Part shown: in pieces, positions 22,189 through 23,891 of the stretch | Layout: each line of letters starts with the position of its first letter | Numbering within the stretch: position 1 is the stretch's first letter | Source: a virus | Taxonomy: Duplodnaviria; Heunggongvirae; Uroviricota; Caudoviricetes | DNA length: 25,205 nucleotides | Direction: 5' to 3' (one strand) | Virus record (IMG/VR): IMGVR_UViG_2541047688_000007 | Coordinates: 1 to 25,205 of that record | The notes under the pieces: generated by a model | The model's database searches: none | The model's input: only the letters and a program-made list of their open reading frames with translations | Told to the model about the DNA's origin: nothing | Position numbers and translations under genes: made by a program

Positions 22189-22520
22189 AGAATGAATAAA
22201 GCATTTGAACGATGGGTCCACCAGCGTTACGGCAATCGCTATGACCTGACGCGAGATGTTGACGGCTTCTACTGTCGTGAAGTTGTGAAGCGAATGTTTG
22301 AAGTGTGGTGCCACTGCCGTGGGCTGAGTGTTGTGTGAGGTAATACATGGGCAATGTGATTCAACTGGCTCCCAATGAATGGGTTTGTGAAAGCGTTCTT
22401 ATCGCAATTACCGGGCTCAAACCAGGCACAATTCTTCGGGCCCGGAAATGAAGTGGTTTACTGAATTTGGCCACCTGAACAGAGGTGATATGCTCACCTC
22501 AGAACAACACAGGTGCCATA

Positions 22521-22823
22521 ATGAAAAAAAGAAATTTCAGCGCAGAGTTTAAACGCGAATCCGCTCAACTGGTCGTTGACCAGAATTACACCGTGGCAGA
22601 TGCAGCCAGCGCTATGGATGTCGGCCTTTCCACAATGACGCGATGGGTGAAACAATTACGTGATGAGCGGCAGGGAAAAACACCAAAAGCCTCCCCTATT
22701 ACCCCGGAACAAATTGAAATCCGTGAGCTCAGGAAAAAGCTACAACGTATTGAAATGGAAAATGAAATATTAAAAAAGGCTACCGCGCTCTTGATGTCAG
22801 ACTCCCTGAACAGTTCTCGATAA
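22521..22823 (+). CDS. IS911-like transposase OrfA
   Basis: Identical translation to copy 1 OrfA. Confidence 0.9.
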
Positions 22824-22849
22824 TCGGGAAACTCAGGGCGCGTTATCCT

Positions 22850-23668
22850 GTGGCCACTCTCTGCCATGTGTTCGGGGTCCATCGCAGCAGCTACAAATAC
22901 TGGAAAAACCGTCCTGAAAAGCCAGACGGCAGACGGGCTGTATTACGCAGCCAGGTACTTGAACTGCATGGCATCAGCCACGGCTCTGCCGGAGCAAGAA
23001 GCATCGCCACAATGGCAACCCAGAGAGGCTACCAGATGGGGCGCTGGCTTGCTGGCAGACTCATGAAAGAGCTGGGGCTGGTCAGCTGTCAGCAGCCGAC
23101 TTACCGGTATAAACGTGGTGGTCATGAACATGTTGCTATCCCTAACTACCTTGAACGGCAGTTCGCCGTGACCGAGCCAAATCAGGTGTGGTGCGGTGAT
23201 GTGACCTATATCTGGACGGGTAAGCGCTGGGCGTACCTCGCCGTTGTTCTCGACCTGTTCGCAAGAAAACCAGTGGGCTGGGCCATGTCGTTCTCGCCGG
23301 ACAGCAGGCTTACCATGAAAGCACTGGAAATGGCATGGGAAACCCGTGGTAAGCCCGTCGGGGTGATGTTCCACAGCGATCAAGGCAGTCATTATACGAG
23401 CAGGCAGTTCCGGCAGTTACTGTGGAGATACCGGATCAGGCAGAGTATGAGTCGGCGTGGAAACTGCTGGGATAACAGCCCAATGGAGCGCTTCTTCAGG
23501 AGTCTGAAGAACGAATGGGTGCCGGCGACGGGCTATGTAAGCTTCAGCGATGCAGCTCACGCAATAACGGACTATATCGTTGGATATTACAGCGCACTAA
23601 GACCGCACGAATATAATGGTGGGTTACCACCAAACGAATCGGAAAATCGATACTGGAAAAAACTCTAA
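22850..23668 (+). CDS. IS911-like transposase OrfB (DDE domain; -1 frameshift fusion with OrfA)
   Basis: Identical translation to copy 1 OrfB; slippery site at 22772-22778. Confidence 0.9.
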
Positions 23669-23891
23669 CTCGGTGGCCAGTTTTTGTTGACCACTTCAAA
23701 AGAATGCTGGATGGTTGGAAGAGAGTATATTCACGTATCACCAGACGGTAATCCAAAGCCTTCCAGTGAATGTATGTATAACAGAAAAGCAATAGATGCC
23801 TGGGTCGCCTCAATGAAAAACAAACAACCCAGGTGATTTAATATCATGAAATATGTAAGCTCGTATCGCTCTTGGGCGTCTGGAGGTATCG

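Follow-up and report, generated by a model that had tools for sequence, protein, structure and literature searches.

Locus and insertion site

The insertion described here lies in a 25,205-nt stretch of DNA, called the window throughout, which comprises positions 1 to 25,205 of the IMG/VR virus record IMGVR_UViG_2541047688_000007 (Caudoviricetes). The window covers that half of a lambdoid prophage which carries the early and lysis genes; it starts in the lysis region and ends at the stop codon of the integrase gene int, and the attachment (att) sites and late genes lie beyond it. Directly upstream of int, an excisionase-family gene (xis) is split at codon 34/35 by a copy of the insertion sequence (IS) ISEc52, and the resulting xis is almost certainly a null allele. 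A second, identical copy of the same element lies 5.7 kb upstream. The features concerned are as follows.

22347 to 22448, plus strand: xis 5' fragment, codons 1–34 (MGNVIQLAPNEWVCESVLIAITGLKPGTILRARK), an open reading frame (ORF) matching DUF1233 profile positions 1–31 at E 3.3e-10
22446 to 22448, no strand: target-site duplication AAA, left copy; uninterrupted genomes have a single AAA here
22449 to 23698, plus strand: ISEc52 copy 2 (IS3 family, IS911-like), 1250 bp, with HTH_Tnp_1 and rve domains and identity to annotated ISEc52
23699 to 23701, no strand: target-site duplication AAA, right copy, read from the sequence
23702 to 23836, plus strand: xis 3' fragment, codons 35–78 and stop (ECWMVGREYIHVSPDGNPKPSSECMYNRKAIDAWVASMKNKQPR), matching DUF1233 positions 33–69 at E 8.3e-17
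23892 to 25205, plus strand: int, tyrosine integrase of 437 amino acids, with Arm-DNA-bind_2 and Phage_integrase domains and a PHROG 1 match
16692 to 17941, plus strand: ISEc52 copy 1, 1250 bp, identical to copy 2 at 1250 of 1250 positions, with a GAAC duplication

The 5' part of xis opens with an ATG at 22347 and runs for 34 codons to a TGA at 22449–22451, a stop that consists of the first three bases of the IS. The IS itself spans exactly 1250 bp, and its ends (TGAAGTGG...CCACTTCA) form imperfect terminal inverted repeats that match at 21 of the 27 outermost positions. On both sides it is bordered by the trinucleotide AAA, and past the right copy the xis frame continues for 44 more codons to a TGA at 23834–23836. 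The coordinates and codon counts given in the initial annotation for the split ORF, the 1250-bp IS and the AAA duplication are all borne out by the sequence and the ORF listing. When the IS and one AAA are deleted in silico, a step that the same annotation had proposed together with a homology search, the 34 and 44 codons join in frame into a 78-amino-acid product, MGNVIQLAPNEWVCESVLIAITGLKPGTILRARKECWMVGREYIHVSPDGNPKPSSECMYNRKAIDAWVASMKNKQPR, and the search recovers an excisionase-family protein.

At least nine complete Escherichia coli genomes have an uninterrupted locus that matches the restored 1147-nt context at 100% identity with no gap, and 292 E. coli genomes contain 80% or more of this context. 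The uninterrupted loci are annotated as a DUF4222 protein, a hypothetical protein, an excisionase family protein and a tyrosine recombinase/integrase. Because this exact empty site in relatives is found together with a matching duplication on both sides of the IS, the event is a simple transposition, and an error of assembly becomes very unlikely. Such an error, in which a multicopy IS was misplaced inside xis, might be suspected from the abundance of the element in E. coli and from the two identical copies within 6 kb. However, both junctions carry a perfect 3-bp duplication, removal of the IS restores a known sequence exactly, and the duplication around the other copy is a different one; a misjoin would create no target duplications at all. 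The probability left to a misassembly is negligible.

Two further observations concern the right-hand junction. A 50-codon frame (window 23684–23836) starts at a TTG inside the right end of the IS and consists of 6 IS-derived codons followed by the 44-codon xis tail; the 6 + 44-codon fusion product found no match in an exact-product look-up, and no promoter-like site was seen ahead of the frame. In addition, a consensus promoter scan of 22100–24000 revealed no outward IS promoter able to drive the xis tail or int.

Family, fold and function of the split gene

The restored 78-amino-acid ORF matches the Pfam family PF06806 (DUF1233, "putative excisionase") over positions 1–69/70 with 112.1 bits (E 9.5e-33), the gathering score of the family being 22 bits. 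It also matches PHROG 539 "excisionase" (E 5e-40), and RefSeq names it "excisionase family protein". The two fragments separately cover positions 1–31 and 33–69 of the 70 positions of DUF1233, and the IS thus cuts a single domain mid-way. The four invariant columns G40, R41, E42 and Y43, as seen in a family alignment of 40 sequences, fall on the 3' fragment, which also holds the wing and the C-terminal helix. The gene is small and lies directly upstream of a co-oriented tyrosine integrase at the end of the prophage. Judged by these profile matches and names, the split gene is an XisR-type (DUF1233) member of the excisionase family, and its earlier identification as an excisionase gene holds at the level of the family.

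An AlphaFold model was made of the homolog P0002, which has the same residues 1–69 as the restored ORF; the mean pLDDT of the model, 68, is moderate. The model contains a strand at 12–14, helices at 15–22 and 28–34, strands at 43–46 and 57–61, and a helix at 62–72, and the 5' fragment corresponds to strand 1 and helices 1 and 2 (residues 12–34) of a winged-helix fold. In the model, the IS cuts this ~70-residue winged-helix domain immediately behind its second helix, ahead of the wing. Among solved structures, the top Foldseek match is 2kvv, a Klebsiella "putative excisionase" (probability 1.00, TM 0.64), which is also found by sequence search (E 8e-4). The remaining Foldseek matches are non-significant (E > 0.5) and include winged-helix and MerR-like DNA binders.

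The closest functional reference is XisR (YdaQ) of the Rac prophage of E. coli K-12, which is likewise a member of PF06806 (E 6.2e-21) and shares 33% identity with the restored ORF (E 1e-9). XisR has 71 amino acids compared with 78, and xisR lies directly upstream of the tyrosine integrase gene intR on the same strand. On the other hand, the similarity is distant, the integrase and the att site are different (ttcA in Rac, presumably yecE here), and xisR is intact whereas the gene in the window is split by an IS. Liu et al. 2015 (PMC4632033) report that Rac excision drops 9.4-fold in exponential phase, and 13.6-fold in stationary phase, when xisR is deleted. Conversely, overexpression of xisR raises excision 9.7-fold, and purified XisR shifts an attR fragment and not a control fragment (PMC4632033). 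By analogy, the restored product would bind an att arm and stimulate Int-mediated excision, an activity known for the distant member XisR only.

The initial annotation had likened the product to lambda Xis around the GREY motif. The lambda Xis sequence used for this comparison was verified by its match to PF07825 "Exc" (E 1.2e-41). BLASTP of lambda Xis against the restored ORF gives no alignment at E<=100, and the restored ORF has no match to PF07825, the lambda Xis family, at E<=0.01. Profile-to-sequence alignment with hhalign yields one local match of 18 columns with 44% identity and a probability of 3.3%, in which TILRARKECWMV------GREYIH is set against TVRRWVRECRIFPPPVKDGREYLF of lambda Xis, i.e. 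TVRRWVRECRIF..GREYLF. Lambda Xis was not among the top 50 Foldseek matches of the P0002 model. The two proteins share the motif R-x-EC...GREY (RKEC...GREY), which spans the insertion point of the IS, as well as their role, their genome position and the character of a small basic winged-helix protein, but they belong to different Pfam families (PF06806 here, PF07825 in lambda). The likeness around GREY is thus a real feature of the aligned sequences, and as a statement of membership in the lambda Xis family the claim does not hold. The right comparator is XisR/YdaQ of Rac, and lambda Xis is alike by position and fold class.

The want of significant similarity to lambda Xis, the word "putative" in the Pfam name and the lack of an NCBIfam model could be taken to mean that the split ORF encodes no directionality factor, and that the insertion is irrelevant to excision. 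This is highly improbable, given that in all relatives examined the gene occupies the canonical place just ahead of int, that the family member XisR is a tested excisionase which binds attR, and that the winged-helix fold matches the solved family member 2kvv.

ISEc52 and its second copy

The interrupting element has the properties of an IS3-family IS of the IS911 type: it is ~1.25 kb long, its inverted repeats end in 5'-TG...CA-3', and it has produced target duplications of 3–4 bp (AAA for copy 2; GAAC for copy 1). The left inverted repeat of copy 2 lies at 22449–22475. It is followed by orfA (22521–22823, 100 amino acids), with an HTH_Tnp_1 domain (Pfam, E 6e-14), and by the overlapping orfB frame, which extends to 23668 and contains an rve/DDE domain (Pfam, E 1e-31). 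The slippery heptamer A AAA AAG at 22772–22778 stands in the correct register for a –1 frameshift, which would yield a predicted OrfAB fusion of 382 amino acids. All these traits, namely the 1250-bp length, the TG...CA ends, the orfA/orfB arrangement, the heptamer, the 382-residue OrfAB, the rve (DDE) domain and the 3-bp duplication, are in common with IS911. The element is 99.6–100% identical to many copies annotated in RefSeq as "IS3-like element ISEc52 family transposase", while IS911-annotated records give a poorer match (92.4% over two pieces, including flanking DNA). The earlier label "IS911-like" is therefore fair, and ISEc52 is the more precise name, which by RefSeq naming also sets the element apart from IS911 proper.

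The same element elsewhere in E. coli provides one side observation. In E. coli AR_451 (NZ_CP030337.1), a tyrosine integrase gene is split by an ISEc52 identical to that of the window; RefSeq marks its transposase as a "frameshifted" pseudogene, though the frameshift is the programmed one.

Copy 1 (16692–17941) has the same orientation as copy 2 and is flanked by GAAC at 16688–16691 and 17942–17945. It is intergenic, between an HTH_3 gene (16082–16585) and the early-left ORF 17968–18333, the latter being transcribed in the direction of xis and int. The distances are 106 nt after the HTH_3 gene and 22 nt before the next ORF, with its own GAAC copy discounted. IS-free relatives are without copy 1, and their flanks abut with a single GAAC. 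Once restored, the sites of both copies are collinear with IS-free genomes at ~100% identity. Each of the two copies has its own matching flanks, which shows that they have not recombined with each other. Recombination of the two direct repeats could give rise to a 4.5-kb deletion, and copy 1 may exert polarity on all genes that follow it, xis and int among them. A location of copy 1 in the pL/oL operator region received no support from operator-like words in common with the cI–cro intergenic region, and the promoter scan was uninformative on this point. In a closely related yecE prophage of E. coli CUVET17-1136 (NZ_CP115324.1), xis is intact and ISEc52 stands elsewhere, behind an ead/Ea22-like gene; by its position, this copy is an independent insertion into the same early-left region.

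The integrase and the xis–int module in relatives

The int gene starts 55 nt downstream of xis on the same strand, encodes 437 amino acids and ends at the last base of the window. Its product contains Arm-DNA-bind_2 (E 9.8e-24) and Phage_integrase (E 3.1e-18) domains by Pfam and matches the PHROG 1 integrase (E 2e-86). An Int of exactly this sequence occurs in 11,746 blocks of a public collection, and in all ten places shown an intact 78-amino-acid DUF1233 gene lies upstream and yecE downstream. Because the exact Int is so widespread beside an intact xis, int is taken to be intact, and the IS-bearing allele to be the exception.

The restored 701-nt segment comprising xis and the 5' part of int also occurs in two phages: Escherichia phage PhiR49_2 (host ECOR13) matches it at 100% nucleotide identity, and the Stx2e phage phiP27 at 94.9%. 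Both are yecE-integrating lambdoid phages in which the excisionase is likewise followed by the integrase; in contrast to the window, their xis is uninterrupted. The yecE locus is a documented insertion site of Shiga toxin (Stx) phages (PMC9751135).

In many draft assemblies, above all of Shigella flexneri, contigs start or stop within this xis family at varied codons; in S. flexneri, a 53-amino-acid partial product occurs on 436 contigs. This suggests that breaks by IS or repeats are common in this xis family in Shigella. An IS hot spot at the present position was considered from exact look-ups of the 34- and 44-amino-acid fragments and rejected, the matches being contigs whose end or start simply falls within an uninterrupted xis. 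The coincidence of exact fragments carries no weight, since partial xis products of many lengths (31–53 amino acids) are found at contig ends.

A second intact xis, which the initial annotation had named as a circumstance that would undo its proposal, is not present within the window. The family hidden Markov model, run against all six frames of the window, recovers only the two xis halves, at E 3e-16 and 2e-30; no other match falls below E = 1. Similarly, the ten other unassigned ORFs of the window, nine of which are shorter than 125 amino acids, have no excisionase-type Pfam match.

Recency and rarity of the insertion

After removal of both IS copies and of one duplication copy each, window 1442–25205 is collinear with a prophage of E. 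coli FAH (NZ_CP116035.1) at 99.63% identity over 21,262 columns. Most of the 69 substitutions fall within 1442–1936; from 1936 to 25205, there are ~11 substitutions and no net indels. Frameshifts relative to FAH were considered and discarded, the 10 gaps having proved to be compensating pairs in divergent patches. The FAH prophage is IS-free, ~47 kb long and situated between yecD and yecE. Its late genes are complete, and a single excisionase is annotated in it. The yecE location is seen in such IS-free relatives and would be expected by analogy for the prophage of the window.

The junction between IS and xis, queried as a 100-nt sequence with full matches required, is found in none of 5426 complete E. 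coli genomes, and it has no exact match in the genome contig and metagenome contig collections. As the rest of the window is near-identical to the IS-free FAH prophage and the two IS copies are identical, the IS insertion is judged from these comparisons to be recent, and it is private to the source strain as far as the searched collections show.

Other features of the window

The left end of the window includes a mosaic boundary. Relatives that are ~99.9% identical from 1936 on diverge in 1–1936, and for positions 1–887 the match to FAH reaches only 96% and is displaced.

Window 3354–7863, which separates the Q antiterminator from the lysis genes, holds defence-like cargo. It includes a DUF262 protein (5005–6162) with PADLOC matches to NsnA (E 5.6e-46) and PD-T4-2_A (E 4e-27), and beside it a gene that RefSeq names as a HEPN-like nuclease (6165–6854), which has no PADLOC match. 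DNA methyltransferase genes at 3354–4403 and 6823–7863 flank this pair. Three tRNA genes were identified by ARAGORN on the minus strand at 3055–3304: Arg(tct), Arg(tcg) and a tRNA with a CAT anticodon, the last being called Met by ARAGORN and Ile by RefSeq in a relative. Their position is where Stx phages carry tRNAs upstream of stx; no stx gene follows within the window.

A 79-nt direct repeat, 94% identical between its copies at 12948–13026 and 13604–13682, lies inside two adjacent genes for regulators of the Ash/Rha family, and the repeats presumably represent paralogous domains.

Probable consequences for excision

The explanation favoured here is that a recent ISEc52 hit grounds a yecE-type lambdoid prophage via its xis, which as a whole we consider likely. 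ISEc52 would have transposed into codon 34/35 of an XisR-type xis by simple insertion with duplication of AAA, leaving a 34-residue N-terminal stub and a promoterless 44-codon tail. Loss of the product would remove the Xis-assisted recombination of attL with attR. Moreover, int transcription during induction would probably be lowered by the two IS copies, each of 1.25 kb, that separate the early-left genes from int. Excision frequency would then fall by an order of magnitude or more, and not necessarily to zero; a reduction of at least 10-fold is probable by analogy with related systems.

Several points weigh against this explanation. The size of the excision defect is carried over from other systems and does not come from this Xis/Int pair. 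That the IS copies are polar on int is likewise presumed, and the promoter and terminator evidence neither supports nor refutes it. The DUF1233 family is still named "putative excisionase", and its tested members are distant ones, such as XisR with 33% identity. Finally, the sequence outside the window may contain further damage, or another prophage with a near-identical xis.

The initial annotation had gone further and described the prophage as probably locked in, a stable cryptic element that keeps its cargo. Loss of Xis would in that case abolish excision fully and leave a permanently fixed and harmless remnant. The xis gene is certainly broken, no second xis occurs in the window, two IS copies lie upstream of int, and lambda xis mutants are severely defective in excision in classical genetics, all of which agree with such an outcome. 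However, deletion of xisR reduces Rac excision just 9–14-fold (PMC4632033), and the prophages Sp4 and Sp14 of O157 Sakai, whose Xis is non-functional, excise with "integrases alone" (Asadulghani et al. 2009, PMC2669165). Sp4 and Sp14 resemble the prophage of the window in being lambdoid, with an intact Int and a non-functional Xis; they differ in that their Xis is described as being without DNA-binding motifs, that no IS insertion is reported, and that excision by Int alone has been demonstrated there (PMC2669165). A complete block of excision is thus plausible in its starting point, the broken xis, and overstated in its extent, and we regard it as unlikely.

The term "cryptic" is contradicted by the rest of the window. 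The genes for the S24-peptidase repressor, replication, Q and lysis are almost base-for-base those of an intact prophage, and induction should for this reason still be able to kill the cell. The element would accordingly be a recently grounded prophage, potentially inducible and lethal, and not an old cryptic remnant.

At the other extreme, the insertion might have little effect, if Int alone suffices or if the genome contains another prophage whose DUF1233 Xis cross-reacts. DUF1233 excisionases are common in enterobacterial prophages, and up to 3 module-like places occur per E. coli genome; the median number per genome is 1, however, and an identical int–xis module would compete for the same yecE site. 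Directionality factors are, moreover, usually specific for their cognate Int and att arms. Even with the report of Int-only excision (PMC2669165) in its favour, so small an effect appears more doubtful still than a complete block.

There is, in addition, a slim chance that the two directly repeated ISEc52 copies did not arrive independently and act as a composite unit around the 4.5-kb early-left segment, with the loss of xis selected as domestication. The cargo fixed in this way would be the DUF262/HEPN pair, the two methyltransferases and the three tRNAs, and recombination between the IS copies would delete the segment as the next step of decay.

Biological significance

The components of this case are already known, namely ISEc52, the DUF1233 excisionases, the lambdoid prophages at yecE and the damage that IS elements inflict on recombination modules; new is this particular xis::ISEc52 allele only. 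It adds one more case to the well-documented grounding of prophages by IS elements, and its significance is local. For the source strain, a recent ISEc52 insertion in xis predicts that the yecE-type prophage excises and transfers poorly, and that induction may lead to abortive in-situ replication and lysis instead of phage release. Because the window otherwise hardly differs from an intact relative, the event has been caught very early, and the interrupted and intact prophages form a natural near-isogenic pair for measuring the contribution of a DUF1233-type Xis to excision.

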